Source: an uncultured Gammaproteobacteria bacterium (GTDB taxonomy: Bacteria > Patescibacteriota > Microgenomatia > Daviesbacterales > UBA10151). Taken from it: DNA of 64,000 nt. Each line of letters begins with the position of its first letter. The first letter of the stretch is position 1. The notes under the pieces are model-generated. The model was not told the origin of the DNA, made no database searches, and saw only the letters and a list, made by a program, of their open reading frames with translations. The DNA lies in NCBI GenBank assembly GCA_964446685.1, contig CAYUPO010000003.1:39183-103182 (forward strand). Reading direction: 5' to 3'. The position numbers were made by a program, and so were the translations under genes. This document shows positions 7,640 through 48,114 of this stretch, piece after piece.

Positions 7640-7672
<33 letters not shown>

Positions 7673-8241: not shown

Positions 8242-8278
8242 AGGTGCCGAACCTTACCGTCCTTGTGGACTGTTGGGT

Positions 8279-8315
<37 letters not shown>

Positions 8316-8780
8316 ATAAGCCTTATCGATCCCATGATCAAATAAAGGATCACTTAAGCCTGCTTTCGCACCTGCTCGACCTGTTTGTCTCGCAGTCAAG
8401 CCCACTGTATACTTATGCGCTTGTAACCTCAATTTCTTTTTGAGGTAAGTGGACCTTTGCACTCCTCCGTTACGATTTTGGAGGAAACCGCCCCAGTTAA
8501 ACTGTCCGCCAGACCTTGTCTCACTCCCTGTTTTTATAAGGGTAAGTGGTTAGTCCTGTTAAATTAAAAGAGAGGTATTTCACGGTTGCCGAGGCTCCCT
8601 CCTATTCTACACAATTAATTCAACAAAACAGGGCCAAGCTCCAGTAAAGCTCCACGGGGTCTTCTTGTCCAAGTATGGGTAGGCCGCATCTTCACAGCCA
8701 TTGCAATTTCACCGGATCTATCCTCAAGACAGTCACTAAGTCGTTCTGCCTTTCGTGCGGGTCTGAACTCACCAGACAAG

Positions 8781-9230
8781 GAATTTCGCTCATTCCTATA
8801 TACACTTTGTATAAAATTTTGATGTTAACTTAAAACTTGCGTTTTAATGTGGATGAGTGACTTCCACTCTCTTAATCGCTTAAGAGTTCGGACTATATCT
8901 TGTACAAGTTTTAGCTTTTTTCTTGTACTCTAACATGTAGTCTCTGAGGGTTCGTGACAGATAGATCAGAGTTTCAGCGTAATCAGTGGATCAGATTATG
9001 GATAAATCGGATAGATCAGAACTTGCGTTCTGACTTCTCTGACTTCTCTGTCATCTGATTTCAGCTGATTTGCTGATCTTTCTGACGTCTCTGAAACGTC
9101 TTCCCTGCTGATTGACTCCGTCAATGAATTGTTACTGCTTTTTATAGCGAGTACCATTGCATACTGAGTTATTCCAGCAAATAGTTAGATTACAAAAACA
9201 CTGTATTGTCGCTTCTAAGGCGGCTAATTC
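8781..9230 (-). mobile_element. Group I intron in 23S at E. coli-equivalent position 1931 (helix 69-71 region), ORF-less
   Basis: It interrupts '...CTATGGT|AGCGAAATTCC'. The intron ends in G. It contains 'CAGAGACTACATG' (R element) and 'CAAGATATAGTCCGAAC' (S element), which nearly match the Tetrahymena consensus, with a P8-like hairpin between them. Confidence 0.75.
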
Positions 9231-10725: not shown

Positions 10726-10765
<40 letters not shown>

Positions 10766-11699
10766 CGAAAGCATATTTAGCCTTAGCAAATGGTCTTGCT
10801 AGCTTCACCCAGGATTACACGTGTCCTGGGCTACTCAGGTGTTCAATAACGGTGTTTTAAATTTTAAATACAGGACTATCACCCTCTATGGTCTTACTTT
10901 CCAGCAAGTTCTTCTATTTAAAACACATCGCATAGCTTGAATCCTACAACCCTCCAGGCCTATCTCCTTACGGAAATAGGATAATCTGAAGTTTGGGCTC
11001 TTCCCTTTTCGCTCGCCACTACTTGGGGAATCATTATTATTTTCTGTTCCTGCGCTTACTTAGATGTTTCAGTTCAGCGCGTGCCCGCCGCCAACCTATG
11101 TATTCAGTTGGAGGTACTCTATAAAAGAGTGGGTTACCCCATTCGGAAATCTGTGAGTCAAAGCTTCTTGGCAGCTCTTCACAGCTTATCGCAACCATGT
11201 ACGTCCTTCTTCGGTGCTTTCGACCAAGGCATCCACCGTACGCCTTAATGTTGAGTATATTTTGGCTTCAATGACACACAAAAAGCTTCTTGCGAATCTT
11301 TCTGCATATCTAAATTTGGCCTTCCCATTCATAACTATCGATCGGATAGTTATGATGTTTGTTTTACTTCCACCCTTGCGGGTGTGATAAAACTGTCGTA
11401 TTCACATTTTAAAGTACAAACTCCAGGACTTAAGTTACTACGTCTTCCCTGCCTTTGCAGAGTTTTAAATGAATAATTGACGAATTCACCAAGCTCTTCG
11501 GCCCGGATATGAGCTTTCAATCATTTGATTAAAAAAACTTATCCTTGCTGAAAACCAACCCAAACTCTTTGCGTCAAACGTCTTTCATAGGTTGTGGGTT
11601 ATCTTTTATTTATATTTCGGCTTACGCCGAAGAGCGTAAGCTCGCAAGCTTCGCTTATATATGTAGATAACCCGTTTAAATGTCGTTCAGACATTTAAA

Positions 11700-11760: not shown

Positions 11761-11808
11761 TTTATTGAAAGGAGTTTACTCATTGCATATGCTTCCACCG
11801 GGCAACTG

Positions 11809-11880
11809 TGGACCCGAGAGGAGTCGAACCTCCTACATCTTCATTGCAAATGAAGCGTTCTACCGGTGAACTACGAGCCC
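11809..11880 (-). tRNA. tRNA-Ala (anticodon UGC)
   Basis: Cloverleaf with acceptor GGGCTCG/CGGGTCC that includes the G3·U70 Ala identity pair. D-stem GTTC/GAAC. Anticodon loop TTTGCAA. T-arm GGAGG-TTCGACT-CCTCT. CCA not encoded. Confidence 0.8.
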
Positions 11881-28463: not shown

Positions 28464-31400
28464 TTATGGAGTTTTTTTATTTAACAAATTACTTATCATT
28501 TCACTAACTGAAATTTGATTTAATTCAGCTTTTAAAGCAGCCATATTGAGCTTAAAATTTTGACCTACATTATATTTAACTTCAGCTATATTTTGGAATA
28601 AGCTGTGAGTTGCATTGATGGTTTTATCTATCCAGGTATTACTTTTAGGAATGGTATAAACAATCGGTGGTGTGTTTGATACATTATCAGTAAAATTCTG
28701 TTTAACCGACGCAATTAATTTTTCAGGTGTACCATCAGAAAAGATGATTTCTTCGACTTTAGATTGTTGTAAGTCAGGCAAAGTGGTGATAAAAGCTTCA
28801 ATTTTAGAGCTGCCAGGAGGTGCGGCATACTTATTGGTATAAATGCTTGTATCAGGTGCGAGATAAAAACTGATATTTGTGTTTTTTATATCTCCTGATT
28901 TCCACTTAAAGTTCAGGTTATTGGCAGCAGTCTGAATATAATTGTTGGTTAAAAAAGCCGAAACTTGGTCAAATTTGATCTTTTGCACTTTTTCTCTTAA
29001 CCCAAACTCTGTTGGAATTGTATATAGCGGAGCATCATTATAATAGTAAGCGGTTATCCGACTCGCAATGTCTTCATATGGATAAAAAATATTATTAAAA
29101 ATTAATCCTGGAGGATCACTACTTGCCCCTGCTTTTGCGTATAAGTTTGTTTGAATATTATAAATTGAATCTGAACTTTCGATGACAGTTTCTAATGGCG
29201 CAGTTGCAAAATCTATTGCTGGTAGATGGGGAGAAAACGGTGTTGTGTCTTTGACTAATGTGGCATCTCCAATTTGTTCTACAGGGATCATTTCCAGTTT
29301 TTCAACCGGCTTTAAGAATGAAGGCAGATTTATATCACTGATATCAGATAAAGCATTAGCTGCTGTCTGCTCAAATGTTTCAACTATTTGAGAAGGAAAA
29401 GATGGCGGTTTGATGGGGTCAAGTAATTCTTCTGCCACTTGATAATTTGTTGGTTGGTATTTACCAGTATTTGGATTTAACTGGAATGTAAATCTTTCTT
29501 CTTTATCTGTAATCACAACAAAAATACCATCATCTGTAACTACTTTTTTTGCGGTATGGGAAACTTGGCCGTAAGAATCTCCCCTGGTATATATTTCAAT
29601 TTGCTCTATTGCATGAGGATTAATTCCTCCTGGGATGAGAACTTCCTGCTCCCCTGGGTGATTGGTTAATATCTTACCCTGGAATGCAGGAATACCCGCC
29701 GTCTGACCGGTTGTATAGGTATCAATTGCTCCGCTTGCAGGGGATTTCAACGTAAAAACAACACCGTTTGGAACATCACCACCATCATCAAGAAACATCG
29801 CCCAATTTGAACCATTATATTTTTCTATACCAGTACTCGCATAGGGGGAAATTTTGTTTAAATCTGTTGATGTATGGGTTGAAATTGTCTGTGTCAGCTC
29901 ATCTGCATCGTATCTAAAATCAGTTGCCATTTGATCATTATGTTTTTGAAGTGCAGCAATGATATTTTCTTCTTTCATCTTCCTGGTCCAGCGCAAAGAT
30001 ACTTCCTGTAAACCAACTGCATAGTTTGATGTACCAATTGCTACTGGTTCTTCAAATAATCGCAGGATATCTTCATGTGTTGTGATAGCATCAGTAGTTT
30101 TACCGCCTCTGTAGAGTTTGGCATCAGTATAAAATCTTTCTCTAATATACCGTTCATATGCCTCATAATCCTGAGGTTTTATTTGTAACGCATTCAGGTA
30201 GGACTCAGGTACGAGTCCTCCCACCGGTATGGCAGCAGGCAACTTCATACCCATACTATTTGCTGAGACTTGGCCTTTAAATTTAGCCTCAAACTCAGCT
30301 CTGGCAGCTCTGAGTTCAGATAGAAAATTGTCATAATCACGATGAATGAGTTTTCCTCCAGGAGCGACTGGAGCTGGAGCCAGACCAAATTCATTAAAGA
30401 AGAAATCATAAAACGTTTTATCTTCACTTAGTCCAAGCATTTCTGCTTCATCGGTTATTCCTATTCTCTCAAGTGTCTGTCTCCATTTGGCCATTTCTTC
30501 AGCTTTTTGGCTGCCATTTTTTATCTGCTCAGTCCATGATTCAAGAGGCAGAATAATATCATCATTAAATTCAGACAATATTGGAGGGGTTTTACCGGCA
30601 TTTTCCAGAGACCAGTTCATCAAAGTTCGGGACAATCGACCATTTACATCTCCATATGGATGAATTGTAATCAATCTTCTTTGTAGCTCAGCAGCCAGCT
30701 GGAATGGATCATGGGATGGATTACTTGCTTGCTGGTTGTACCATTTTGCCAGATCACTTAATAATTCCTCCACAAAGGCCTGATTAGCTGGAATAGAGGC
30801 TGTTTTGCCTACTGGACCTATCCGATCTTTGGCATCTTGGGGCAGAGATTCATAAATTTTTCGGCCTTTTTCTGAATTGAGACTTGGGTATTCAATAATC
30901 CCTGCATTTGGATCTTCTCCTCTTTGCAAGAATTCGAGTAATGGATTGTTCCTAATCTCATCAGCATGTTCTTTGGTATAGGTCGCGGGACCAGGTTGTG
31001 AGTAATCCCCTCCCCTCGCTGCCCCTATTCGAGGAGATCCACCAATACTTGGATCGGCAGTTCCTGTTAAACGAATATGCAAATCTCTTATAAAATCAAC
31101 TGTTAAAGGTTGTTTACCATAGGCTCTAGCTGCTGTGCGGGCATTCAGCCAGTCAACCCATGCTTCTTCTCCAAATGTTTTTTCAAGTCCAGTCTGGCCG
31201 GTGATAATTCCAGTTCTGACAAATTTGTCATCTACTAATAAAGCCGTTTCTGCTGTTTTAGCAAGTGGGGTGTTAGTCTGGGTGATTTCTTCAACTTTTT
31301 GAGTATAAGTTGGCAGATCGATTTCATTCTTTTTCAATGAGGCAGTCAATGTATCTATTTCGGTTCTAGCTTCAACCCAATTTGGTTCAGGTAATGCCTG

Positions 31401-34400
31401 CCGAGCAACCGGAATAATATCATCAAATTGTGAAGCAGGCTGAGGTAATATCTCATCAAGTAACTCGCCAGCAGATTTCTGAAAATCAAGCACTACATCA
31501 TCAACGCCATCCGCTGCCGCAGCCACTCCGGGAATATCATCCAAACCAGGAACTGACTGAACCAAAGAACTAAGTGGTCCACAAGGCCCAGTAGAAGCTG
31601 CCAGAACTTCTCCGGTTGAGGCGCCTAGGACATTTGAAGTTTGGTTGGCTTGGGCAAGATTTGATGCTTGTGGAATTGAAGCTAAATTACAGTTAGCTGA
31701 ACCTAAGAAGCCTGATCGTACATTCACATCGGGATTTGTTTTTTCTACCTCTCTGATAAACAGTTCGACAAAATTTTCCTGCTGAAGCCGCATAGCTGCA
31801 AAATCTAGGAAACCAGCTGAAACAGGTTTTAGACCTCTTTCAGCTAGCATAGTATTTGCAATACCTAGGTAAAGTGAGTTGTTTACTTCTCTAAAAGATC
31901 TGGCTACTACACCATACTGGTATGATTCTGCAATCAATCGTAACTGATCTTCTAAAGAAAGGGTTCTATCAGTTGTTAATTGCTGCATTCTCAACCGCAT
32001 TTGTTCAAAATACTCATTTGTAAACCTTGGATCTGGATAGTTATGCGTTAATCCATAGGGATAATTCCAATCCTTACTTGCTCCGCCTTTGGATATTCCT
32101 GGTAATTGCAGGTACTGCTCAACATCAATATTTTTGTTTCTTACAGCCATTAAATTGTCAAAATATGGATCATTGAGATCCCTTGCGACTCTTGCAACAT
32201 AAGTATTTACAATTTCAAAGTGGCCCTCTGATACCATTCTTCCAGGAACAAGAGCACCCCCCTGCATATCTGGTTTATAGGCTATTTCCTGATGAGCAGC
32301 CCTCAACCAATTTAGAAATACATTTGAAGAACTAAAGTTTCGAGGATCAGAAAGTGAATCAGTGACATAAGCCCTTAGTGCAAGATTAGCATTTATAAAA
32401 TTTCCTTTAGAGAGGTCAACTGTTGGCTGATAACCATAGAAATAATGTCCATCTGGATAAATATATGGATGAACCTGTCTCATATTTCTATCTGGTCCAA
32501 TCTCTCCTGCATCTCTGACTAGACCTTTCCAAAAATCAGCTAATTCAGGTGTAACCTTTCCATCTCTCACCGCTATTTTAATTGCACTATTTAGATCACG
32601 CAGTTGGGATGGTGTTAATGGTACTGGAGGTGGATTACCAGAAGTATTTATTCTTTCTAAATCATCAACTAAGGATCCTAGAGGATAAAATGCCTGACTT
32701 ACAGCATCATCAACTCTTGTTGCTATTGGGATTCCAGTAGGGGAAGTAATTACTGCCCCGTCAGTCAGTAAATCCGCACTGTCATCAATCAATACACTAT
32801 CGTCTGTAAGCGGCGGAATCTGAGAAGTATTTTGGCCAGCTTTCAGTATTCTGGCCTGTGCTTCTAAAGATTCAGCCAATGTATCATTACCTAAAATTCT
32901 AGCAACTCTGGCAGCCTCTTCGAGCCCTTCTGCTGCCAAAATAGCAGTAGGACCAATAACAGGCATGCCTGCTAATGGAGTTTGCAGCACACCATCCACT
33001 ACATCTGCTGCAGCATTACCAGCGGTTTGAACTGGTGCAGGGGCAGTGCTAACTGCATTTCTAACAGCACTCGCAATACTGCCTGCAGCATCATCTGCTG
33101 TAGTCACTACTACCTGAACTGCTCCGGTTACATTTTGAACGGCTTGGGTAACAGGTGGGACTGAAGCTGGATTAGCAGGAGCGACAGAATTTGCCTGCTT
33201 TAGTTGAAGATAAAGGTCAATTTTCTCATCAGCTGACAAAAGACTTGGATTTATCCCTCTCCTGGTTAATTCTTCTCCTACTCTATTTCCAACTGTTGCA
33301 CTTGGAATCCTGTATTCAGTTCTGATTTCAGGAATTATTTCAATTTCTAATTCTAGATAAACAGGCTTTAACCGGCTTATGCTGTCATTTAAAGGTGCAA
33401 GTTCTCTGTTAAATTGGTCGATAGCTGCTTGATTGAGAGTTCCTGAAGCTCTGGCCTCCTCAACTCTTTGCATAATAAGTTTTTGCTGCTGAACAGCGTT
33501 TGTATATTCAGGTTTAATTTGATCTAGCCGATTTTCTGCCTGAATTAGTAACGCTCTGATCTCAGGTAATTGGTTTAAGTTTGTTCTAGCTGAAGCATGT
33601 CTTAGACTGTTTTCCAAAGAAATATAAAACGCATCTAGTTGATCCCCCAGATTATCAACTACAGCAGATATCGCAGTATTAGTTCTTGGATTTACTGGGA
33701 TCTCTCTTGCAGCTTGCGCGAAAGGACTTATTGCTGAAACAGAATTAATTGATGCTGGGGCTTGTGTGGTTGGATTAGCAGGAATATTTGGCGCCGTAGC
33801 AGGAGCTGGTGGAGTAGGTGTTTTTGGATTTATTTCATCTGAGATTCTTCTGATTGCAGCGTTTAGATCTGGATCGGTATCCCTCATCCCCTGCCTGATC
33901 AGGGCAGCGCGAATCTGGTCATCACTGACAGGATTTACTAATGTAGCCTTACCTGTACTTATATCAAAATTCACTCTCTGGAAACCGGTAAAATCCATCA
34001 CTACTTCTCTTTCAATATCAGTTACTAATCTTGTAGCTGAAGTTGCTGGATTAATTACTATCGGCACCTGCTGGGTATTAACTTTTTGGGCAGCTGCAAA
34101 TGTTGTGTTAAATTCAGATTCTGCAATAATTTTGATATCACCACTCAATTTGCCGGGTAACCACTTCCCTGGTGTTGCCGCTTTAGCAAATTCGCGGAGA
34201 TTTTGTGGTGCAGTGTGGGGTAAAATAATTTGATCTAATATTACGGTCCCATCACCAGATTTTTGGTATCTGGCAATTATCCATAATCCTTGTTTTCCTG
34301 TATCACTGATACCGAGCCTGCCAGTTGTATCCATAAAGAATGCTACATCAGTTTTTGCAGGCTGCTTCCAAAGTCCAAATCCACTCGCCTCTGAAAACCC

Positions 34401-37400
34401 TGCAGTTGGTGATAACGTATTCAAAAGCCTTCGATTAGCGTCGTTGATTTCATTTCCAGAAGCTGCACTTGTAAATACCTTTGCCCGATAATAATCAACT
34501 TCAGTTGCCAATTTATTTACATCTAGCGCTGCTGCGTTAGCATCAAAATATAATTTTTCATATTCTGATTTAAGATTATTTCTGGCGGTCAAAGCCTCGG
34601 CATAAGTTTTTTCAGAAACTTTTCTAAAAGCAAGCCCTTCACGAGCAACCCGTAACTCCTCTCTCGCTTGATCAAGCACTGCCTTAGAAGTTGTTGTGTC
34701 TCCTTCCAATTCAATTACTTTGTTATATGCAGCTAACCATCTCTGCTGCATTTCAGGTTTTAGAACTGAAATATTCTCAGAATCCCTTGCCATTTGGGCT
34801 TGGAGAGCCGCCAATTTTTGTTGTGATGCTGTAAGTTTTTCTACCAAAGTAGGCTTTACTTCTCCGGCTGGCCTCTCCTGCCATATTTCTATAGGAGAAT
34901 AGGTTAATTCATTATTTGCTTTTGCTAAGTCATCAGCTCTTTTAGCAAGTTCTCTTTCTTTTGTTGAACGCACATTTACTTGAGAAGAAATACTAGTTGG
35001 GTTTAAAACATCTTCTGCTTGTTTTAACTCTGTCCTGGCAGTAGTCAGAATACGATTTTTCGTTTGCAAATCATCAGAATTTGTTTTAATGGCTAGATTA
35101 ATTTTATCCAACTGATCTTTTTTAAGTCCTAACTGAATCTCCAGGTCATCTCCAATATTTAGCTTTCTTTTACCCCATCGCCATAAAATATTTGATCTTC
35201 GTGCTTCTAACCCTTCAATGTCTTTTAATAGGATCAGTCTATTTATTAATAAATCACTTCTTTCCTGTGTTGCTTGAGCAACCTGCGCTTCTAATGGCGG
35301 TATATCATTACTAAGTCTGCTGGCCAAACTTGCCGCACTGGCTCTGTCTAAAGCTGAACCATTTAATAACGATGTATTTGCTGGTGGGGCTGATGTCAGC
35401 CAATTCAATGGTCTGTCAACCGCTTGCAGCCAATTTGCTACTCGGTTGGTGACTCTATTCACCCATCCAGGGGCATTTGGAATAGTTGGATTGGCGGGTG
35501 TTAAAGGAGGTGTTGTGACGTTTGATGCAACAGCAGGATCTGGAACTGAAGTTGTGTTTGTTCCTGGAGTAGCTGGCCGTGGTTGAGCAACATTTGGTTG
35601 AGAATTATTGGCAGTTGTTCCGGTATTTGGAGCTGCTTGGGCAGTGTTTTGGGTGTTACTTGCATTTGGATTGAAACGGGAATCTGCCCGTAGTTGGTCT
35701 GGGGTAAACTCTTCTGCTGGTCTGCCATCTCGGAAATTGACTGTGATTTTTTGACCTGTGGCGTCACTGCTGACTCCATAACCTCTGACATCTGGATGGT
35801 TACGGAGATTATTCAATAATGTTGGATCAACCGAAGCTTGGGGTGCTGCAGCTGCTGGCGGTGTTGTTACAGAGGTGTTTCCTGTAAAACGGCTGGTAAT
35901 TGCGCCAAGTCCGTCAGCAATTCTTTCAAATATATTTGGTGAAGGTGGTGGGATACTGGCAACCTGAGGTGTCTGATCAAGCGGTATACCATACTGATCC
36001 TGAATTGCCTGAGCATAGGCTTCAGCTAATTCATCATTAGCTATTTGGACTCTTACTGGATCAACAGTGGCGCCATTTAGTTCAAAGAGACGCAAGTTAT
36101 CTACTTTCTCCTGAGCCAACCTGACTGCATCAACTTCACTGACTGTTTCACCCAGCTCTCTGACAACTGCGTTGATTCGAGCTTGCTGTAATGCCGCACT
36201 GGCAGCATCCGCCTGGATGCTCAAAGCATCAATTTGATTTACAGGTACATTTTCAATATCTGCCTGTATTCGATTTAGACTTATTTGAGCTTCAAATACT
36301 TCCTGATCATACCGGACAAGGTCATTTACCTGCTTACCAGAAGCAGAATAGGCTGCAACCAATGTTGATTCTGCCTCTTTTACTCGGGCATCTGCTAGAT
36401 TCAGATAGGCAGGCAACTGAGGATCTGCTGCAAACGCTGGGTCAGATCGAATCTTTGCTTCAAAATCAGACCGTGCCTGTTGCACTCTCAGTAAATTGTC
36501 CTGTGCCGCTAATACTGATTGTCTAGCAGCAACTACTGCATCATCTGCATTTCTGGCGTATTTGGGCGCATCCCAGATCTCTGGACCAAAAAAGGCCGGT
36601 ACCTTTTGAGACCATGGCGCATCAACTGCTGCACCCACTGACTCTCTCAGCAAACCTGCTGCTTCAGGAAGCATTTCCCTGACGCCAACAGAGGCCAGCT
36701 TTACTCCTCCTCGGGCCAAAGCCGGAACGATCTGCAAAGCATCAAGTCCCGTTAATGAAGCAAAACCTGTTCCACCGGTTGCAGCAGCTATTGGCAAAGC
36801 AATTGCAGCAGTTACAGCTGTATTACCAACTGATTCACTCACATTAAGCTGCATCTCCCAGGCGAATTTACCTGGTTCAGTATTACTTTTGACATACTCA
36901 GCTGCATAGCCATAGGCGTTAAAATCTTTTTCTAGTTTAGCTGCTTCATCAGGTGTTAATCCCAGCTGCTTAACAGTGTAGCTGGTACAGAATTCATTGT
37001 TGGCTGCACCAGATCCAGTTGCCATACAGGAAGCTTTAGCATTGGCGTATATACTAAATGATTGATAATCAGACGGTGTGTATCCAGGAAAAACTTCACT
37101 TAAGACTCTATTTGCTTTTGTATAGTCCTCTGGATTCATACTGATGGATTCTCCAAATCCGGTGTAACACAAAGAGCCATAAGTGTCGGCACAGATTAGC
37201 TGGGCAGATCCTTGGTGAATAAAGGGATTTACATCAATTGCTGCGTTCAGAAGATTATTTGACAACCATTTTAAAGGATTAGGGTCTTCATGAGGCAGGA
37301 AAGCGAAGAATGCCTGATTCTGCGTTGGACTCCAATTTTCAGGTTTCATTGCTGCATCAACTTGCTCTTGAGTCATCTTCCCCGCTTTTAGCATCTGTTC

Positions 37401-40400
37401 ATAATTTTTTGGCAATATTCCAACTTGTGCAGCAGTTTCTTCAGCCCTCTGTTTGACCTGAGGAGTATCGTAATAATTTGTATTCCAGATCCCATACTGA
37501 GTAGACAAACCGGCTGCCCGCATGGCAGCTGATAAGTCCCCTGTTGCGTTTAATGTCGCAAGCCCTGCCTGCATTTTCTCACTGGAAGATCTGGTAGAGT
37601 CTGTGGCAGTGATCCCATCATTTACAAATGACTGACCTGCATCGTATCCAATTGCGCCAATAAATGATAATGGATCCCGGACAGTTGGATGCTCACCTAA
37701 CCAGTTTTGGGCTGAAGCTACCAGTTGGCTGCCAGTTGAAACAGTAGATGATCTTACTGCCTGACATCCTTCTGTTAAGCTATAAACAGTAAAACATTTT
37801 ACCGCTGTATCTGCTTGGACAACCAATCCAGCTATTCCCTTGGCAGGAAGTATAATTCTGGCTGCTGATTGCTCAACTCTTCCCTCAGATAACTCAGCAG
37901 CGCGTTCTGCAACCCTTGTACCTACCTCCAATTCATTTTTGTTTGATTCACCAGTTAAGCTGGTCAGCGCACCTGTTCTCAAATTTTGTGGCAATGTGAT
38001 TGTTTCAGCAACTGTTGCTCCATAAATATTTCTAGCTTTTTCTAATGCATCCTGATATCCAGCCTCATCTCCGGCAGCTTTGGCCTGGGCAGCTGTTTGA
38101 TACCAGTCGTTCATAACCTTTCTTTGATCCCCTATTTTAGCTATGGTATCCAGAGAATTTGCCTGGGCTGCTAATACTGGGTCAGCCTTTAGGTCATCGG
38201 GCAGAGCACCAAAACGGGCTCTGGCTGTTTCGACTCTTTCAGCTGTCACAGCAGAATTGTTCTGATTTGCGGCATTGTAAGCAGCCCAGGTGACATCTTC
38301 CCTAAAGCTATCTACTGCTCTTTTTCTATCCAGGATGGTACTGACATTTTGGTTAAAGTTCGCTAGATCTGTTTGAAGTTTGGCTTTTTCTGGTGTTTCA
38401 GGTAAGACAGAAAGGGACAGTCTGGCATTTTCTAAAGCGGTTGTTTGAGGAGTCAGATCTTTATCAGGATTGCCAACATCATTTACAGCTAGCCTGGTGG
38501 CAAGACTAATATTTCCCTGAGCTGAACCGACCGAAGGTGCAGTATTAAAAGAGTTTTGCAACTGTCTAGCTGTGTCAGCTTGATTTGCTAAAGTAAGCGG
38601 GTTTATTACCTGTTCTCTAAATTGTCGACTTAACTCAGCCGACTGTTCATCAGTCTCAATATTTCCAGCCCGGGCAATCGCTAATCTTTCATTGACCAAT
38701 CTTTGGGCTGTACCTTCTACAACAGCGTTAGCATATTTATCCTGTAAATCTCCAACTATCACCCCATCTCCAGCTTTACTAGTAGCAGCCCTGATAATTG
38801 TGTTAAAACCTTCATCTAAAGCTGCTTTTTCATCAGCAGTTAAATGTCCGTTTGCAACCTGAGATTTAACATGATTGGAATATGCCTGGGCTGCTACAAT
38901 CTCCGGTATTACTCTGGCCTCGACTCTGAGCTGTTTAGCTTTTGCCGGATCAACTACTGCAATATGTTCTACTGAGGTATTCAGTCCATTAATAATGCCG
39001 CCAATGGCATTATTTGTGTCAGGATCCAAACTCTTACCTGCAGCAAACTCCTGCTCATATTCAGCCTTCCAGGCGTTGTAAGCAGCATTGCCAACTCTGG
39101 CTTCCAGCTGGTTAGCCTGGGCAGTTGCCACCGTGCCACCCTGAGTTCGTAATTTATCAACATAAGACAACCCGGCATCCTGCAAAAATTCAACCTCCTC
39201 TCTTCCAACATTTGTCTGACCATTTAACTTAGCATGTGCCTCAAGCAGATTGGCCATTTGAGTACCTGATTCAACTAATCTTTCTGTTGAACGAATTGCA
39301 TTTGTTCGAGAAGGAATTGTGTTAAGTTGATCTTCGAATGTGGCTGCAGAACCTTTTGACCCCAACTCTTTGAGCCGGTTAATCCCCTGCTCAGCTTCAG
39401 CTAATTTTTGACGGTAAAGCGGATCATCTTCTGGTCTGGCTATAGAAATATTTGAATCAGGATTATAGTCATTTGACCGGTCATACTGCAGTCTCAACTG
39501 TTGTGCTGCTGCTAGATCCCGTGATACCTGTTGATTGGTATCAAGAATCTGATTCACTTTTTCCAAACCTGCTACCTGAGAATCGACTGTGCTTCTATCC
39601 AGTGATAATGATGCCTGTGGAAGTATATTGATGGCTTTTTCTGCTTGTCTTAATTTTTCTAATGCTGCTTCCTGGTCTGCCTGCAGCTTTTCCAATTTGG
39701 CTGCTGTTTCTACCGGAATGTAACCCAAATCTCTAACAACTGCCGCTCCATACTGATCAAGTTGATTTGTAGCAACTGAGGCTTCTGTAACAGCATAGTT
39801 GTATTGGACATGATTGGTTACAGCTTGGGATGCTATAACAGGAGCAGTCGTGATGTAAGTAGGACATGATGCTTTAATATAATCTGTCACACATTCCTGA
39901 TGCTGCTCGACTGCTTTATCCCTATTCAAATCCCTGGCATCAGGACTATTTGAAAAACTGGTAGTGTAATAATCTGCTGCACGGGTTTCAATAGTTTTAC
40001 AACTAGTTACCGCATTGTAAGCACATCCATCCTGCCCTTGAATTTGGCCTGGGCCAACGGCTCCTCCCTGCCTGATTGTTCTGGCTGGAGTTACAACAAC
40101 TGGCTTACATTGCTCATCATTCATACACCCTGACAGGGCTGGAGCCCCAACACATTTATTTTCTGCGTTACAAGTGGCCTCCTTATTGATTTTGATTGTT
40201 CCCTTGGCCTGGCAGGCAGAACAAACTCCGCCACCTTGGCTTAAGTCACATTTACCTTCAACATCACCTTTGCCATAGCAAACATGTTCACCTTGGCTGC
40301 CGTCTCCCAGATCACAAATCTCTGGCTGAAGACAAGATTTACCTTCTTCAAATTTCTGCGAGAATAGTCTGGCAGGATCAATTGGTGCATCAGCAGCGGC

Positions 40401-42932
40401 CTGCTGTAAGGCTGCAGTTTTGGTCTGACACTGAGCATCATTAACGCAGATATATCCTGGTGCATTTAGACAGGTTTGGCCATCTTCACTACATTTATTC
40501 TCCTTACTGGTTAGGTTTAAACTTTCAGTGGTACATGCACTACAGCTGGCTTGGCTAGGATCGTATTTACAGACAGGAGCTCCATTGTCGCTGGCAACTT
40601 TTCCAGCGCAGGCTTTTTTGCCTCCATCGGCGCAGGCTTCAGTATAGACACATTGGGCTCCCAGCTCTGCTAACCCAACAAAAGCAGATACACTTGATAC
40701 TGCAGTCTGGTATGCCTTTTGGTTACGCTCATTACATTCATTGATGGCTGCTTCCCCAACCTGTGCAGCACAATTCTCTGGCTTAAATGAAGCTGCTGCC
40801 TGAGCTATTTTATCTTTTTCATAATTGCCGAATTCACAGTTAATTTTAGCTTCCCCAGTTAAGCTGGAACAATCTTTTATTCCTAGATTTTGTCTGTTCT
40901 GTTCTAATTTGATGGCCTGCTGGTTTCTCTCTGTGCAATCCTTCTTTTCCTGCTCGGATCCACTGCTGCAGCTTTCCAATCTGACATTGTCCAAAACCCT
41001 GCCTAGAAATCTGGTTTCAGTGTTTTTATTTTCACAAGCCTCTTTTGCCTCTCCCTCAAGTGATGTACAGTCATCTACTGTCAGACTGGCTTTTATCAGT
41101 GAGGCCTGATCCAGTTTTTGACCAGTTTGGGCAATCCGGGTATTTTCTTTTTGGCATTCAGCTCTTTTGGCTGCATCTACTTCATCAAGACAATTTAACA
41201 ACTTGATCTCTTGTCCTGACGTAGCGTTGTTACCTGCACAGGAATTTGGACATTGGGAAGCATTTACGGTTGAATAAACATTAACACAGGCTGCTCCATC
41301 CCAGCCGGATGACTGCTCGATACAAATATTGCCGTCACAGTAGTGATTAACAGCATTGGTTTCTTTGCAGGAGGCGTCTTTAGTTCTCTGCAGTTCTTCA
41401 GGATTTGGTAGTGAAGCATCAATGATTTGACCTGATTCTGAAATCGGTTGAGCGATTGCAGGCGCACCGGTTTCAGCCACATATTTATTGCCATTTGCGT
41501 CCTGCTCAACTCCGCATTTGCCGGCAACCAGTTCACAGTTACCACCTGGTTTTGCTTGGCCTTTTGGTTCTCCATCACAGTACAGGATATGCAACCTGCA
41601 ATACTGCAGTCCGACACAGCCGCTATCTGCTAAATCAGCAAATCCGCAAGCCTGATAGCCTGACGTATCAACCTGCTCTAATCCAGCACCTCTAAACTCA
41701 TTAAGTAACTGATTTTGACACTCAGCTTTCCATTGATCTTCAGGATTATTACAGTTAAATTTTCTGGATCCATCAGTATTGGTACAGTATTTGGCACCAA
41801 CACTGCCACCACAAGATCCACCACATTCTTCCCGGCAATAAATCTCATCATTGATGGCTGCCTGCTCGGTGTTTGAATTGACACAGCTGCCGACGTTGAT
41901 ATCCCAATATTGATTTGATGGACAAGCGCCATCATTTTCCCCAGTACTTCCACCATCAATGCCACATCCGTTATATTCCCAACTATTGTTGTCTCCAGCG
42001 TCCCCACCTTTAAATAACCAGCCATTTTCACAATAGCCAGCCGTAACATTACTGCTGCTAGCTGCTGTATAGCACCTGTTATCTCTCCATGATCCCCCCG
42101 CTTTATTACACTCCTGTTCATTGGTATCTGAGTCAACCTGACCAAGACCACAACCGGTATATTCCCAGCTGTTATTATCTCCTGCGTCACCTCCCTTAAA
42201 AGTCCAGCCGTTCTCACAATATCCAGCTTTCACCTCATTGCTGCTGGCTGGGGTATAACATCTGTTATCAGTCCAGGTGCCTCCAGCTCTGTTGCACTCC
42301 TCCTCATTGCTATCTGAATCAACTTCTCCCATTCCGCAACGGGTATATTCCCAGCTATTATTGTCGCCAGCATCTCCGCCTTTGAAAGTCCAGCCGTTTT
42401 CGCAATAGCCGGCTTCTATCTGATTGCTGTTGTTATCATTACTGCTGGCTGAAGTAAAACACCGATCATCCCTCCAGGTTCCACCCGCCCGATTACAATC
42501 CTCTTCGCTGTTATCTGAATTGTCATCGTCATCATTGTTCTGCCCACAGCCGGTATATCGCCAATTGTCATCATCTCCGGCATCCCCTCCTCTAAAAGTC
42601 CAGCCGTTCTCACAATACCCAGCTTCAACTCCTCCACCGTTGTCGTTGTTATCGTCATCGTTATTATCATCATTATTATTGTTATCACTGTCATCATCTC
42701 CATCATTGTCATCATTCCCGCCATTTCCTCCCCCTTCTTCACAACCAGTGTATTCCCAATTATTATCATCTCCCGCATCTCCGCCATTAAATGTCCAGCC
42801 ATTTTCGCAGTTATTAGAATCAAGAGCATAGGCATTTGGGGGAAACGGCTGAGGAAAATAAAAAATAGTTAAGAATGCCAGGAAAACAAACAGGAGTGTG
42901 AAAATAGATCTTTTTGACGGATAGGGCAACAT
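28464..42932 (-). CDS. Giant (4822-aa) secreted multidomain protein: signal anchor, 5x N-terminal 'CENGWTF..GGDAGD' repeats, Cys-rich region, long helical region, degenerate Fic motif, intact Fic motif, C-terminal R-S-E ADP-ribosyltransferase-like signature
   Basis: A single uninterrupted ORF. Fic motif 'HPYGDVNGRLSRTLMNWSLENAG' at nt ~30625-30663. Degenerate Fic 'SFREVNNSLYLGIANTMLAERG' at ~31850-31930. ART signature 'LYRGG' (~30100-30125), 'GTSNY', 'GEQEVLIPGG' (~29615-29672). Confidence 0.7.
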   Translation of the reverse strand: MLPYPSKRSIFTLLFVFLAFLTIFYFPQPFPPNAYALDSNNCENGWTFNGGDAGDDNNWEYTGCEEGGGNGGNDDNDGDDDSDNNNNDDNNDDDNNDNGGGVEAGYCENGWTFRGGDAGDDDNWRYTGCGQNNDDDDNSDNSEEDCNRAGGTWRDDRCFTSASSNDNNSNQIEAGYCENGWTFKGGDAGDNNSWEYTRCGMGEVDSDSNEEECNRAGGTWTDNRCYTPASSNEVKAGYCENGWTFKGGDAGDNNSWEYTGCGLGQVDSDTNEQECNKAGGSWRDNRCYTAASSSNVTAGYCENGWLFKGGDAGDNNSWEYNGCGIDGGSTGENDGACPSNQYWDINVGSCVNSNTEQAAINDEIYCREECGGSCGGSVGAKYCTNTDGSRKFNCNNPEDQWKAECQNQLLNEFRGAGLEQVDTSGYQACGFADLADSGCVGLQYCRLHILYCDGEPKGQAKPGGNCELVAGKCGVEQDANGNKYVAETGAPAIAQPISESGQIIDASLPNPEELQRTKDASCKETNAVNHYCDGNICIEQSSGWDGAACVNVYSTVNASQCPNSCAGNNATSGQEIKLLNCLDEVDAAKRAECQKENTRIAQTGQKLDQASLIKASLTVDDCTSLEGEAKEACENKNTETRFLGRVLDNVRLESCSSGSEQEKKDCTERNQQAIKLEQNRQNLGIKDCSSLTGEAKINCEFGNYEKDKIAQAAASFKPENCAAQVGEAAINECNERNQKAYQTAVSSVSAFVGLAELGAQCVYTEACADGGKKACAGKVASDNGAPVCKYDPSQASCSACTTESLNLTSKENKCSEDGQTCLNAPGYICVNDAQCQTKTAALQQAAADAPIDPARLFSQKFEEGKSCLQPEICDLGDGSQGEHVCYGKGDVEGKCDLSQGGGVCSACQAKGTIKINKEATCNAENKCVGAPALSGCMNDEQCKPVVVTPARTIRQGGAVGPGQIQGQDGCAYNAVTSCKTIETRAADYYTTSFSNSPDARDLNRDKAVEQHQECVTDYIKASCPTYITTAPVIASQAVTNHVQYNYAVTEASVATNQLDQYGAAVVRDLGYIPVETAAKLEKLQADQEAALEKLRQAEKAINILPQASLSLDRSTVDSQVAGLEKVNQILDTNQQVSRDLAAAQQLRLQYDRSNDYNPDSNISIARPEDDPLYRQKLAEAEQGINRLKELGSKGSAATFEDQLNTIPSRTNAIRSTERLVESGTQMANLLEAHAKLNGQTNVGREEVEFLQDAGLSYVDKLRTQGGTVATAQANQLEARVGNAAYNAWKAEYEQEFAAGKSLDPDTNNAIGGIINGLNTSVEHIAVVDPAKAKQLRVEARVIPEIVAAQAYSNHVKSQVANGHLTADEKAALDEGFNTIIRAATSKAGDGVIVGDLQDKYANAVVEGTAQRLVNERLAIARAGNIETDEQSAELSRQFREQVINPLTLANQADTARQLQNSFNTAPSVGSAQGNISLATRLAVNDVGNPDKDLTPQTTALENARLSLSVLPETPEKAKLQTDLANFNQNVSTILDRKRAVDSFREDVTWAAYNAANQNNSAVTAERVETARARFGALPDDLKADPVLAAQANSLDTIAKIGDQRKVMNDWYQTAAQAKAAGDEAGYQDALEKARNIYGATVAETITLPQNLRTGALTSLTGESNKNELEVGTRVAERAAELSEGRVEQSAARIILPAKGIAGLVVQADTAVKCFTVYSLTEGCQAVRSSTVSTGSQLVASAQNWLGEHPTVRDPLSFIGAIGYDAGQSFVNDGITATDSTRSSSEKMQAGLATLNATGDLSAAMRAAGLSTQYGIWNTNYYDTPQVKQRAEETAAQVGILPKNYEQMLKAGKMTQEQVDAAMKPENWSPTQNQAFFAFLPHEDPNPLKWLSNNLLNAAIDVNPFIHQGSAQLICADTYGSLCYTGFGESISMNPEDYTKANRVLSEVFPGYTPSDYQSFSIYANAKASCMATGSGAANNEFCTSYTVKQLGLTPDEAAKLEKDFNAYGYAAEYVKSNTEPGKFAWEMQLNVSESVGNTAVTAAIALPIAAATGGTGFASLTGLDALQIVPALARGGVKLASVGVREMLPEAAGLLRESVGAAVDAPWSQKVPAFFGPEIWDAPKYARNADDAVVAARQSVLAAQDNLLRVQQARSDFEAKIRSDPAFAADPQLPAYLNLADARVKEAESTLVAAYSASGKQVNDLVRYDQEVFEAQISLNRIQADIENVPVNQIDALSIQADAASAALQQARINAVVRELGETVSEVDAVRLAQEKVDNLRLFELNGATVDPVRVQIANDELAEAYAQAIQDQYGIPLDQTPQVASIPPPSPNIFERIADGLGAITSRFTGNTSVTTPPAAAAPQASVDPTLLNNLRNHPDVRGYGVSSDATGQKITVNFRDGRPAEEFTPDQLRADSRFNPNASNTQNTAQAAPNTGTTANNSQPNVAQPRPATPGTNTTSVPDPAVASNVTTPPLTPANPTIPNAPGWVNRVTNRVANWLQAVDRPLNWLTSAPPANTSLLNGSALDRASAASLASRLSNDIPPLEAQVAQATQERSDLLINRLILLKDIEGLEARRSNILWRWGKRKLNIGDDLEIQLGLKKDQLDKINLAIKTNSDDLQTKNRILTTARTELKQAEDVLNPTSISSQVNVRSTKERELAKRADDLAKANNELTYSPIEIWQERPAGEVKPTLVEKLTASQQKLAALQAQMARDSENISVLKPEMQQRWLAAYNKVIELEGDTTTSKAVLDQAREELRVAREGLAFRKVSEKTYAEALTARNNLKSEYEKLYFDANAAALDVNKLATEVDYYRAKVFTSAASGNEINDANRRLLNTLSPTAGFSEASGFGLWKQPAKTDVAFFMDTTGRLGISDTGKQGLWIIARYQKSGDGTVILDQIILPHTAPQNLREFAKAATPGKWLPGKLSGDIKIIAESEFNTTFAAAQKVNTQQVPIVINPATSATRLVTDIEREVVMDFTGFQRVNFDISTGKATLVNPVSDDQIRAALIRQGMRDTDPDLNAAIRRISDEINPKTPTPPAPATAPNIPANPTTQAPASINSVSAISPFAQAAREIPVNPRTNTAISAVVDNLGDQLDAFYISLENSLRHASARTNLNQLPEIRALLIQAENRLDQIKPEYTNAVQQQKLIMQRVEEARASGTLNQAAIDQFNRELAPLNDSISRLKPVYLELEIEIIPEIRTEYRIPSATVGNRVGEELTRRGINPSLLSADEKIDLYLQLKQANSVAPANPASVPPVTQAVQNVTGAVQVVVTTADDAAGSIASAVRNAVSTAPAPVQTAGNAAADVVDGVLQTPLAGMPVIGPTAILAAEGLEEAARVARILGNDTLAESLEAQARILKAGQNTSQIPPLTDDSVLIDDSADLLTDGAVITSPTGIPIATRVDDAVSQAFYPLGSLVDDLERINTSGNPPPVPLTPSQLRDLNSAIKIAVRDGKVTPELADFWKGLVRDAGEIGPDRNMRQVHPYIYPDGHYFYGYQPTVDLSKGNFINANLALRAYVTDSLSDPRNFSSSNVFLNWLRAAHQEIAYKPDMQGGALVPGRMVSEGHFEIVNTYVARVARDLNDPYFDNLMAVRNKNIDVEQYLQLPGISKGGASKDWNYPYGLTHNYPDPRFTNEYFEQMRLRMQQLTTDRTLSLEDQLRLIAESYQYGVVARSFREVNNSLYLGIANTMLAERGLKPVSAGFLDFAAMRLQQENFVELFIREVEKTNPDVNVRSGFLGSANCNLASIPQASNLAQANQTSNVLGASTGEVLAASTGPCGPLSSLVQSVPGLDDIPGVAAAADGVDDVVLDFQKSAGELLDEILPQPASQFDDIIPVARQALPEPNWVEARTEIDTLTASLKKNEIDLPTYTQKVEEITQTNTPLAKTAETALLVDDKFVRTGIITGQTGLEKTFGEEAWVDWLNARTAARAYGKQPLTVDFIRDLHIRLTGTADPSIGGSPRIGAARGGDYSQPGPATYTKEHADEIRNNPLLEFLQRGEDPNAGIIEYPSLNSEKGRKIYESLPQDAKDRIGPVGKTASIPANQAFVEELLSDLAKWYNQQASNPSHDPFQLAAELQRRLITIHPYGDVNGRLSRTLMNWSLENAGKTPPILSEFNDDIILPLESWTEQIKNGSQKAEEMAKWRQTLERIGITDEAEMLGLSEDKTFYDFFFNEFGLAPAPVAPGGKLIHRDYDNFLSELRAARAEFEAKFKGQVSANSMGMKLPAAIPVGGLVPESYLNALQIKPQDYEAYERYIRERFYTDAKLYRGGKTTDAITTHEDILRLFEEPVAIGTSNYAVGLQEVSLRWTRKMKEENIIAALQKHNDQMATDFRYDADELTQTISTHTSTDLNKISPYASTGIEKYNGSNWAMFLDDGGDVPNGVVFTLKSPASGAIDTYTTGQTAGIPAFQGKILTNHPGEQEVLIPGGINPHAIEQIEIYTRGDSYGQVSHTAKKVVTDDGIFVVITDKEERFTFQLNPNTGKYQPTNYQVAEELLDPIKPPSFPSQIVETFEQTAANALSDISDINLPSFLKPVEKLEMIPVEQIGDATLVKDTTPFSPHLPAIDFATAPLETVIESSDSIYNIQTNLYAKAGASSDPPGLIFNNIFYPYEDIASRITAYYYNDAPLYTIPTEFGLREKVQKIKFDQVSAFLTNNYIQTAANNLNFKWKSGDIKNTNISFYLAPDTSIYTNKYAAPPGSSKIEAFITTLPDLQQSKVEEIIFSDGTPEKLIASVKQNFTDNVSNTPPIVYTIPKSNTWIDKTINATHSLFQNIAEVKYNVGQNFKLNMAALKAELNQISVSEMISNLLNKKTP

Positions 42933-43029
42933 GTTAAAAAAATGCTGAAAAACCCCCTTTGGAAAGGGCTAAATCCATTGTTACAAATGCGTGAAAATAA
43001 GGCAAGGGTCTTTTATATATAGAGAAGGT

Positions 43030-43115
43030 TACAAATAACCCAATAAACAAATGTCAAATAAACAAATACCAAATTATTGGACATTTGACATTGGGTTATT
43101 TGTTTATTGGGTTAT
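43030..43115. repeat. Inverted-repeat intergenic element, family C (copy 2)
   Basis: 'CCAATAAACAAATGTCAAATAAACAAAT...TTGGGTTATTTGTTTATTGGG'. Homologous to 21365..21480. Confidence 0.5.
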
Positions 43116-43122
43116 GTCTCTA

Positions 43123-43563
43123 CTAGATTTGGATATAAAACACACTGCTTCCTACTAACTCGGCTGTTCCATTTTCGGTTTTATAGAGATAAATACTTAG
43201 AGTCTGACGGCCGGGGGCAGCATTTTTGGGATCAAGAGTACCCGTCATCATCAGTTTATCTTCCTGTTGAACTAATTTCATCGGAACCCCGGCTGATTCT
43301 CCGACTATAAAAACGGCATTTAATTTACCTATATCGGTCCTGTTAATTACCCGGGCTTTAACTTCAACTGGTGTGCTGAGCGCTTGGCTGGGTGAAGGAT
43401 TTAATACTTCAATTGCTTTAACCACATTTTGACTAGCCTGAGTTTTAACTGTTTGTGTCTGGGTGACATTACGGGTTATCAAGGTACCAACTAACACCCC
43501 CACCAAAAGCAGCACCACAATAAAAATACTGACTGCAATCTTTTTGTTACTTTCCCCATCCAT
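43123..43563 (-). CDS. Small anchored secreted hypothetical protein
   Basis: 146 aa with an N-terminal TM. Confidence 0.4.
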   Translation of the reverse strand: MDGESNKKIAVSIFIVVLLLVGVLVGTLITRNVTQTQTVKTQASQNVVKAIEVLNPSPSQALSTPVEVKARVINRTDIGKLNAVFIVGESAGVPMKLVQQEDKLMMTGTLDPKNAAPGRQTLSIYLYKTENGTAELVGSSVFYIQI

Positions 43564-43955: not shown

Positions 43956-44372
43956 ATGTTGCCCAATTTACTAGCCAGACTTTCTAGAATTTCACCACTT
44001 TATCTCTTGCTTGGTTTATTACTCTGTTTGCAGATTTTTCAGATATGGCAGGGAAACAAAGCCGCAAACAATGCCCCACTTTCTGCAGTTCCTTTGGCAT
44101 CAACAACACCGGTTGAGATTTTTAGCAGTCAGACCGCCAGTATCAGAGGCAAAATAACTGCTATAAATGGGTCAAAAATGATGCTGGAAAATGATCAAAA
44201 AGTCAGCGGCGAATTTGAAGCAGGCAGAGTTGTTTTGATCAATGATGCTACCAATCTCTCGGTTGCCTCTTCCTCTGCTGATCTGAAAAAAATCCAGTTA
44301 AACAAAGATGCAGTCATAAATTTGCTGTATGCTGATGGCAGATATGTTGTGACTTCTTTAACCTACAGATGA
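43956..44372 (+). CDS. Small secreted hypothetical protein
   Basis: 138 aa with an N-terminal signal/anchor. Confidence 0.4.
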   Translation: MLPNLLARLSRISPLYLLLGLLLCLQIFQIWQGNKAANNAPLSAVPLASTTPVEIFSSQTASIRGKITAINGSKMMLENDQKVSGEFEAGRVVLINDATNLSVASSSADLKKIQLNKDAVINLLYADGRYVVTSLTYR

Positions 44373-46977: not shown

Positions 46978-48114
46978 CTATCTTCGAGGCAATTCCTCGT
47001 AAGTTTTGGGGTTATTGCAGCTGCCTTTTACAATCGAAATGATCGTATTTGAAGTTGAAGACAAGATGTCTTCCTGCAATGAATAGACAATATTTGAATC
47101 AGTCAGATCATTTTTTTTATTTGGATTACGTTTTATTTTAACAGCTGTCAGCCCGCTTGCAGCCTGATCATTTACCTGAAATGTAATTTTGCCAAGTGAA
47201 CCTTTTTTCTGATAGCTGCGGTTTTTTGGAGCAATATAAGCAATTGTAACTGTGTCTTTATTAAATGCCAGCTGCGGAGCATACAAAGCATCAGGTGGAT
47301 TATCCCCTCTGACTATTTTAATTGGCTTTATAAACCGGGGATCAATTGTCAGTAAAGCATCTATGCCAAAAAAGTCACTTCCATCAGTATCATATTGCAG
47401 ATTTATATCAAAAGTGCAACTGCTACTGGTTTGAAGTAAAGCCGGAGACAAGACCAATGAACCTTTTTTATTATTATCTTTGGGAGAAGCATTGGGGCTC
47501 ATTTCAGGATTACTGGAAGGGTTAGTCGGAGCACTTGTTGTTTCCTGCGAAATCGATTGTAATGTCAGCTCTTTTAAAGGCTGGTTGTCGGCATTGGAAT
47601 ACAACACAGCTTCTTTAAGAGCGATAGTAAAACTCTTACCAGCTAATTTGGATTTGAGCTGAAAATTAATCCTAGCAAAAGCAGTCCGTTTACCTTCAGT
47701 ATTAACTCCTGGTGTGGGAATTCCGCCAATTAGTTCAATCCTGCCTTCTTCCGGAAAATCACTTTTTGTCACCCATAACGATATTGGACCTGTGCCTTTC
47801 AGGTCATCAAGTGAACTGACCTTTAACAGATCTTTGGGATAATCGATTTTGGCGGAGATCAGATTGACTGGTTCTTTGGTTGACAACATTACCTCAACAG
47901 CCAGATTGTCCCCTTCTTTTAAGGACGAAGTATTTTTATCTATCAGGGACAAAACAACTGCCGGAGATTTCTCCTCTGTTTCTACTGATGCTGAAGGAAC
48001 AGGCTGCCCGGAAGGATTGGGATTGATTTTTTTCTCAATTAACACCCCCCCGGTAATCATTCCTATTAAAAGTAAAATAATTACTATGCTATTACCACTT
48101 TGAGAAAAAACCAT
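46978..48114 (-). CDS. Anchored cohesin-like secreted protein
   Basis: N-terminal TM. 'IGGIPTPGVNTEGK' motif shared with 12117 and 44507. Confidence 0.45.
   Translation of the reverse strand: MVFSQSGNSIVIILLLIGMITGGVLIEKKINPNPSGQPVPSASVETEEKSPAVVLSLIDKNTSSLKEGDNLAVEVMLSTKEPVNLISAKIDYPKDLLKVSSLDDLKGTGPISLWVTKSDFPEEGRIELIGGIPTPGVNTEGKRTAFARINFQLKSKLAGKSFTIALKEAVLYSNADNQPLKELTLQSISQETTSAPTNPSSNPEMSPNASPKDNNKKGSLVLSPALLQTSSSCTFDINLQYDTDGSDFFGIDALLTIDPRFIKPIKIVRGDNPPDALYAPQLAFNKDTVTIAYIAPKNRSYQKKGSLGKITFQVNDQAASGLTAVKIKRNPNKKNDLTDSNIVYSLQEDILSSTSNTIISIVKGSCNNPKTYEELPRR

Follow-up and report, generated by a model that had tools for sequence, protein, structure and literature searches.

The molecular means by which episymbiotic bacteria belonging to the Candidate Phyla Radiation (CPR, Patescibacteria) attack, control and compete for their hosts are largely unknown. 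The present analysis concerns a 64,000-nucleotide stretch of contig CAYUPO010000003.1 (positions 39,183 to 103,182; hereafter the window), in which a single open reading frame (ORF) of 4822 codons encodes a giant protein that carries a Fic domain followed by an ADP-ribosyltransferase (ART) domain, and in which the next gene downstream on the same strand encodes an ADP-ribosylhydrolase. The locus is a testable candidate for such means, combining an apparently exported giant protein, two recognisable protein-modifying enzymes, a matching eraser and a natural knock-out allele of that eraser, while it also defines an ART family missed by curated models and a conserved Fic-ART cassette. Its features are listed below in window coordinates, with residue numbers (aa) referring to the giant protein and the basis of each assignment given last.

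28464..42932, minus strand: giant ORF, 4822 aa (ORF list and translation; 4721-aa orthologue P0001 in an independent assembly)
42825..42932, minus strand: Sec-type signal peptide or signal anchor, aa 1-36 (sole strongly hydrophobic segment)
41961..42809, minus strand: five CENGWTFxGGDAGDxxxW-Y-xC repeat modules, aa 42-324 (motif positions, DNA tandem repeat)
39858..41960, minus strand: Cys-rich region, aa 325-1025 (14-16 Cys per 200 aa)
32733..39857, minus strand: Ala-rich central region, presumed stalk, aa 1026-3400 (composition; contains a block, aa 2439-2960, conserved in the related giant protein P0012)
31698..32660, minus strand: orphan module containing a string earlier read as a degenerate Fic motif, aa 3425-3745 (no Pfam match)
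31581..31691, minus strand: Cys-bounded linker CNLASIPQASNLAQANQTSNVLGASTGEVLAASTGPC, aa 3748-3784 (BLASTP segment common to the relatives P0007 and P0012)
30393..31265, minus strand: cassette Fic domain, aa ~3890-4180, Pfam core 4034-4109 (PF02661, PDB matches, conserved residues)
30627..30662, minus strand: Fic active-site motif HPYGDVNGRLSR, aa 4091-4102 (family-conserved residues)
29463..30230, minus strand: ART domain of the R-S-E clade, aa ~4235-4490 (R4275 at 30108-30110, S4366 at 29835-29837, E4428-Q-E4430 at 29643-29651)
28467..29435, minus strand: C-terminal domain, aa 4500-4822 (no Pfam, NCBIfam or PADLOC match)
27434..28426, minus strand: ADP-ribosyl(arginine) hydrolase gene with an in-frame TAG at codon 157, 27956-27958 (PF03747 on both halves)

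Both the ORF list and the translation of the window give the giant gene as one uninterrupted frame of 14.5 kb, as the first-pass annotation of this DNA had reported, and the motif strings quoted there are all present where it had placed them. The objection raised at that stage, namely that a chimeric join or a collapsed repeat might have created or broken such a frame, finds little support, because two independent assemblies agree with the window. One of them, a separate Logan assembly, encodes the orthologue P0001 (4721 aa), which aligns by BLASTP in two segments with identities of 77.5% (aa 1-2496) and 95% (aa 2860-4822), while the other (L083) is 100% identical across 3077 nt that comprise the 3' end of the giant ORF, the hydrolase gene and a GAPDH gene. 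Moreover, Tandem Repeats Finder described the DNA of the CENGW repeats as having a period of 186 nt, 2.5 copies and 76% matches, a divergence that makes a collapsed repeat unlikely. P0001 has four CENGW modules as compared with five in the giant protein, and BLASTP reported no segment between the two for aa ~2496-2860. A look-up for the exact giant protein gave no record and a genome scan using the single protein as query gave no match; word-index searches returned four matches with the cassette and one with the ART profile.

An uncurated ART family of the R-S-E clade

An exhaustive HMMER search with aa 4180-4520 against 1.84 billion cluster representatives retrieved only 46 relatives, and in an alignment of 29 ART sequences the residues G4238, L4240, R4275, G4276, N4332, H4353, P4363, S4366, E4428, E4430 and G4435 are invariant. 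An R-S-E triad had been proposed from the strings LYRGG (aa 4273), GTSNY (aa 4300-4304) and HPGEQEVLIPGG (aa 4425); its arginine and its ExE hold, but the serine is S4366 in SPYASTG (4362-4368) and not that of GTSNY. The AlphaFold model derived from the 29-sequence alignment (mean predicted local distance difference test, pLDDT, 90; predicted template-modelling score 0.90) has R4275 (YRGG) on strand 49-60, S4366 on a second core strand (145-149) and E4430 at the beginning of strand 211-215, preceded by a lower-confidence loop, in agreement with the earlier placement of the ExE in a loop resembling the ADP-ribosylating turn-turn (ARTT) loop. In this predicted structure R4275, S4366 and E4428-Q-E4430 take up the canonical R / S-T-S / ARTT-loop-ExE layout. 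The domain is about 270 aa long, with a helical insert and an extra beta-sheet.

Structure prediction followed by a fold comparison, which the first-pass annotation had put forward as a check, bears the assignment out: Foldseek with the ART model gave TreX as best match (E 2.9e-4), then cholera toxin A1, pertussis toxin and LT, and the A subunit of Plt was also among the structural matches. In a profile search of the PDB, FVSTS and the ExE were aligned to FVSTT and EAE of TreX (E 0.085). The profile check proposed alongside it succeeded for Fic (PF02661) and not for the ART families, none of whose curated models reaches threshold; the best in Pfam is a Scabin-like match over the ExE region at E 0.17 (27-bit cut-off), which reaches E 3.8e-4 in the best relative, and the NCBIfam scan of the domain gave no match. 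Since no Pfam or NCBIfam model reaches threshold, the domain is taken to represent a distinct, uncurated ART family.

The Fic domain and its conserved pairing with the ART domain

The intact Fic motif reported earlier (HPYGDVNGRLSRTLMNWSLENAGKTPP, aa 4091-4117) is well supported, as PF02661 scores 48 bits on the Fic segment (E 2.3e-12) and 41.1 bits on the whole protein, against a gathering cut-off of 24 bits, and the catalytic residues are in place, with H4091, D4095, N4097, G4098, R4099 and R4102 kept in at least 26 of 28 family members. Sequence matches in the PDB (phmmer) include 3cuc, FICD and IbpA (the last with E 4e-4), and PADLOC gave matches to Fic models alone. The Val in place of the consensus Gly at the sixth motif position (V4096), which had been noted as a substitution, is indeed present; it is a trait of the family and not a lesion, because relatives show A, V, G, N, S, M, C, Y or I there. 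An (S/T)xxxE(G/N) helix is the auto-inhibition motif of the regulated Fic proteins of classes I-III, and no match to it was found in aa 3800-4230, which is consistent with an unregulated, toxin-type Fic domain and does not speak against membership of the Fic family. The eighth motif position is Gly and not the Lys of Doc kinases (PMC4177925), and the motif is therefore not of the Doc type. As Fic domains may transfer AMP, UMP, phosphocholine or phosphate (PMC4177925), AMPylation should be seen as a default guess only.

A second, degenerate Fic motif lacking the catalytic His had also been suggested at aa 3679-3700 (SFREVNNSLYLGIANTMLAERG), and this claim is without statistical support, though it is not disproved. 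Pfam returned nothing for the region at E values up to 10, hhalign placed the string in register with the real motif at a probability of only 0.3%, and a hidden Markov model built from 28 cassette Fic domains scored it at -2.1 bits, a value equalled or exceeded by 77 of 500 shuffled sequences. The surrounding orphan module (aa 3425-3745) found no homologues in the word-index search, and its single-sequence AlphaFold2 model (pLDDT 40) was unusable.

Among the 36 relatives scanned, 33 have a Pfam Fic domain upstream of the ART domain, and the consensus runs unbroken from the N-terminal helices of the Fic domain through the ART domain; judged by sequence, the two domains are a conserved unit, here termed the Fic-ART cassette. 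The majority of relatives stand alone, at a length of 550-1100 aa, and have a hydrophilic N-terminus. Among species-representative genomes, the cassette was found in full only in CPR bacteria, namely in one Levybacteria, one Saccharibacteria and one WWE3 genome; several Nocardia spp. (L004, L007-L010) have proteins matching its Fic part, with the N-terminal helices included (query residues ~38-359), and not the ART part. No description of the cassette, or of ART toxins in CPR bacteria, was found in the literature searched.

A related giant of 5508 aa (P0012; L085, 6001-22527) shares with the window protein its N-terminal part (37% identity over ~1300 aa, including the Cys-rich region), the central block aa 2439-2960 (49%), the Cys-bounded linker and the cassette. 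Upstream of the cassette, at the place of the orphan module, P0012 has phosphatase modules of the PP2C/SpoIIE type, so that the effector content of such giants differs from lineage to lineage.

A downstream hydrolase linked to the giant-protein lineage

The hydrolase gene begins 37 nt beyond the stop codon of the giant ORF. Its two halves match PF03747 (E 5e-40 and 5e-28), its best match in the PDB is Tri1 (6dre/6drh, E 5.5e-38) followed by DraG, and the metal-site motifs of both align with its TDDT and GGDADS. It scores 185 bits with the NCBIfam DraG model (TIGR02662; cut-off 337, E 2e-54) and 167 bits with the Tri1 model (NF041672; cut-off 490), below the equivalog cut-off in either case. 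The protein begins directly at the catalytic domain, without a signal peptide. Against the ART toxin Tre1, Tri1 acts as a hydrolase-type immunity protein (PMC11606950).

The stop codon that splits the gene is a recent polymorphic nonsense mutation, because the near-identical contig L084 from another sample (SRR21621036; 99.95% identity over 2152 nt) differs solely in having CAG (Gln) at this codon and encodes an intact hydrolase of 330 aa, while the TAG allele is found again in L083 (SRR12762304). Recoding or read-through of TAG was considered as an explanation for the split gene and rejected, given that TAG ends other ORFs of the window and that L084 has CAG.

In three further loci (L085, L086 and L087) a gene ending in the cassette is followed by a conserved ORF of 78 aa, an intact hydrolase gene and GAPDH. 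The cassette gene is that of P0012 in L085, and in the other two it starts within 20 nt of the end of the locus. The three hydrolases are 46-48% identical to that of the window, and from these comparisons the linkage of toxin and hydrolase is old. The 78-aa product of the intervening ORF is rich in Pro, Lys and Ser (L085, 22582-22818; L086, 4591-4827; L087, 2344-2580), and no remnant of it was found in the window, in which toxin and hydrolase genes are 37 nt apart. The hydrolase as a general partner of the cassette was rejected, as tblastn found none in 82 loci, among them five stand-alone cassette loci; since the latter have none, the link is confined to the giant-protein lineage.

Architecture of the remainder of the protein

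The signal anchor, the five tandem CENGW repeats and the Cys-rich region described in the first-pass annotation were all recovered. Residues 6-31 form the only segment with a Kyte-Doolittle mean of at least 1.5 over 19 residues; the hydrophobic core (aa ~10-27) is followed by AYA|L, a cleavage site placed by eye, in keeping with a Sec signal peptide or signal anchor. None of the CENGW modules, which begin at aa 42, 107, 177, 239 and 301, has a Pfam match. Cysteines are concentrated within aa 1-1025 (8-16 per 200 aa), and the Cys-rich region (aa 325-1025) matches nothing in Pfam or the PDB. For the ~2500 aa that had been called A/Q/E-rich, the Ala part of the description stands, Ala being the commonest residue of every 200-aa block from aa ~1000 to 3400, and a notable richness in Gln or Glu does not; a PDB search with this region gave weak, coiled-coil-like matches only.

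Immediately upstream of the cassette, the linker reads CNLASIPQ...GEVLAASTGPC, a loop of 37 residues with a cysteine at either end, and it lies in the sole BLASTP segment outside the cassette that the giant protein shares with P0007 (66% over 44 aa). It is reminiscent of AB toxins, whose activation loops are nicked and disulfide-bridged, and may be regarded as a candidate processing or activation loop. The C-terminal domain (aa 4500-4822) has a weak relative behind the ART domain of P0002 (25% over 150 aa) and is absent from P0012, in which the ART domain ends the protein.

A probable surface toxin with an enzymatic antidote

On balance, the locus probably encodes a Sec-exported, stalked surface protein of the polymorphic-toxin kind, with a Fic-ART effector region and a hydrolase antidote, in a probable CPR bacterium; its activity, targets and delivery are inferred. 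ADP-ribosylglycohydrolase immunity proteins are strictly associated with polymorphic toxins that carry R-S-E ART domains, and Doc/Fic toxins and long stalked toxins have been described in the same work (PMC3482391), to whose Imm-ARG type the hydrolase of the window corresponds. Tre1, the toxin of the Tre1/Tri1 pair, and TreX both belong to the R-S-E ARTs and have FtsZ as the protein that they ADP-ribosylate (PMC11606950). The likeness to polymorphic toxins proposed in the first-pass annotation therefore holds, and it is strengthened by the downstream hydrolase, which had gone unmentioned there.

In the giant protein, an N-terminal signal is followed by ~3400 aa of repeat, Cys-rich and Ala-rich sequence before the effector region is reached. 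It can be envisaged that the effector region is brought up to an adjacent cell, host bacterium or competitor, by the N-terminal part and the stalk, and that all sequence C-terminal to the Cys-bounded loop (aa 3748-3784) is then released into this cell. There the ART, using NAD+, would ADP-ribosylate an arginine of an essential protein. Arginine is the presumed target residue because of the invariant ExE and the arginine-type hydrolase partner, an ExE in the ARTT loop pointing to arginine specificity. The Fic domain would attach AMP or a different phosphoryl-linked group to a side-chain hydroxyl, on the same target as the ART or on another, while the cytoplasmic hydrolase would strip off the ADP-ribose and so shield producer and kin, in the way that Tri1 counters Tre1.

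Several points weigh against this reading. The hydrolase lacks the N-terminal, toxin-binding extension of Tri1, the alignment starting at Tri1 residue 64, and in this genome it is a nonsense allele through the C-to-T change Q157* (TAG). No immunity candidate was found for the Fic domain. Stand-alone cassette homologues have hydrophilic N-termini and neither a hydrolase nor any other conserved neighbour. Between the two giants the cassette is conserved and not swapped, the variable part lying upstream of it, and the ART is not the extreme C-terminal domain, as ~330 aa come after it. The Pfam scan recognised no HINT, VENN, DPxGL or other pre-toxin or processing domain. Enzyme activity, target, delivery route and processing of the giant protein are predicted, and the assignment of the host to the CPR is indirect, resting on a long 23S gene, unlinked rRNA genes and relatives in CPR genomes.

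Some of these observations would suit a host-manipulation effector, with which an episymbiont reprograms its host bacterium, for instance by a reversible arrest of division or translation, and in which the hydrolase serves mainly for the protection of the producer before export. CPR bacteria are host-dependent and their known giant surface proteins are thought to mediate host attachment (PMC8080830); stand-alone cassettes have no immunity genes beside them, as expected if the producer is unexposed, and the Q157* allele indicates that a natural population can lose the hydrolase. However, the sequence holds nothing that separates manipulation from killing, the closest solved relatives, TreX for the ART and Tri1 for the hydrolase, belong to interbacterial killing systems (PMC11606950), and a conserved hydrolase linkage is the kin-protection signature of polymorphic toxin systems (PMC3482391), which leaves manipulation an unlikely alternative. 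A further proposal, speculative and about equally unlikely, is that Fic and ART are one integrated two-enzyme effector, acting on the same target in sequence or with the Fic domain gating the ART, and that they typify a new family of CPR host-control effectors, the cassette of the giant proteins being released through the AB-toxin-like, disulfide-bounded loop at aa 3748-3784.

That the cassette is an anti-eukaryotic toxin acting on small GTPases or G proteins, in the manner of cholera and pertussis toxins, LT, VopS, IbpA and AnkX, seems decidedly improbable. The A subunits of cholera toxin, pertussis toxin, LT and Plt are among the structural matches, IbpA and FICD are among the sequence matches of the Fic domain, the size and the hydrophilic N-termini of the stand-alone homologues are reminiscent of effectors from intracellular bacteria, and GTPases are the usual targets of Fic domains (PMC4177925). 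Yet structurally the antibacterial toxin TreX matches best, a cytoplasmic arginine-ADP-ribose hydrolase would be needless if the target were solely eukaryotic, and no domain resembling a receptor-binding B subunit was recognised by Pfam. Least credible of all is an endogenous switch of the DraT/DraG kind acting on the producer's own proteins, or a pair of inactive relic domains on a structural surface fibre or adhesin. The hydrolase does score highest with the NCBIfam DraG model (E 2e-54), the locus lies among the housekeeping genes for GAPDH, PGK and alanine racemase, and the Fic motif has its one deviation from the consensus; but the ART protein has an export signal and the hydrolase has none, which would put writer and eraser in different compartments, the catalytic residues of both enzymes are kept across distant relatives, and the enzyme-bearing C-terminal half is 95% identical to P0001 as against 77.5% for the N-terminal half, unlike what relics would show.

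Likeness to known systems

The probable surface toxin shares most with the Tox-ART-RSE polymorphic toxins that have ADP-ribosylglycohydrolase immunity (PMC3482391), known experimentally from Tre1-Tri1 of Serratia proteamaculans and from TreX-TriX of Xenorhabdus bovienii, in which an R-S-ExE ART likewise lies towards the C-terminus of a large exported protein and the hydrolase gene follows directly downstream on the same strand. It differs from Tre1 and TreX in that it is apparently exported by the Sec route from a probable monoderm CPR bacterium, instead of by a type VI secretion system on an Rhs/PAAR carrier, and in that its ART is paired with a Fic domain and followed by ~330 aa; the ART itself, at ~270 aa, compares with a core of ~130 aa in TreX. 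The hydrolase, unlike Tri1, has no N-terminal extension with which to plug the toxin.

A large exported filamentous protein with a Fic domain followed by a second enzyme is also seen in IbpA of Histophilus somni, which is fibrillar and has two Fic domains and a C-terminal cysteine protease, whereas the second enzyme of the giant protein is an ART. IbpA uses two-partner secretion, a type V system, carries repeats of the filamentous haemagglutinin (FHA) type and targets eukaryotic Rho GTPases; no FHA or two-partner secretion signal was found in the giant protein by the Pfam scan. CdiA, and WapA of Bacillus subtilis, similarly combine an N-terminal Sec signal, a stalk of several thousand residues, a C-terminal toxic region and an immunity gene directly downstream. 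In the giant protein, by contrast, Pfam recognised neither FHA nor Rhs/YD repeats, nor a VENN or any other pre-toxin motif; the protein carries two enzyme domains and an additional C-terminal domain, and its immunity would be enzymatic and not by binding.

The likeness to MARTX toxins that had been suggested at first was not sustained beyond the general plan of a giant with serial effector modules that vary among relatives (PP2C in P0012, the orphan module here). The giant protein has neither the glycine-rich RTX repeats nor the inositol-phosphate-activated cysteine protease, it shows no sign of type I secretion and its signal is N-terminal; membership of the MARTX family was rejected, as Pfam at E values up to 1 on the whole protein returned Fic alone.

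Host lineage and neighbouring genes

The host lineage is probably CPR. The 23S gene (7321-11258) spans 3938 nt as compared with a model of 2925 nt, and so carries insertions of about 1 kb. It is separated from the 5S gene (3276-3392) by three protein-coding genes, a tRNA-Ala gene (11808-11880) lies just upstream of it, and a 16S gene was not found anywhere in the window.

A long AT-rich inverted repeat (AAATAACCCAATGTCAAATG ... CATTTGTTTATTGGGTTATTT), which could be a terminator or an operator, lies between the giant gene and the gene upstream of it (42933-43122). Directly beyond this intergenic region come the genes of two small proteins (43123-43563, minus strand, and 43956-44372, plus strand) whose N-terminal segments are hydrophobic; no known domains were found in them, and both have counterparts at the same positions beside P0012, with 51% and 74% identity. 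Elsewhere in the window, cohesin and/or dockerin domains occur in three proteins (46978-48114, 12117-13937 and 5835-7160), suggesting that this small genome encodes a cohesin-dockerin surface assembly.

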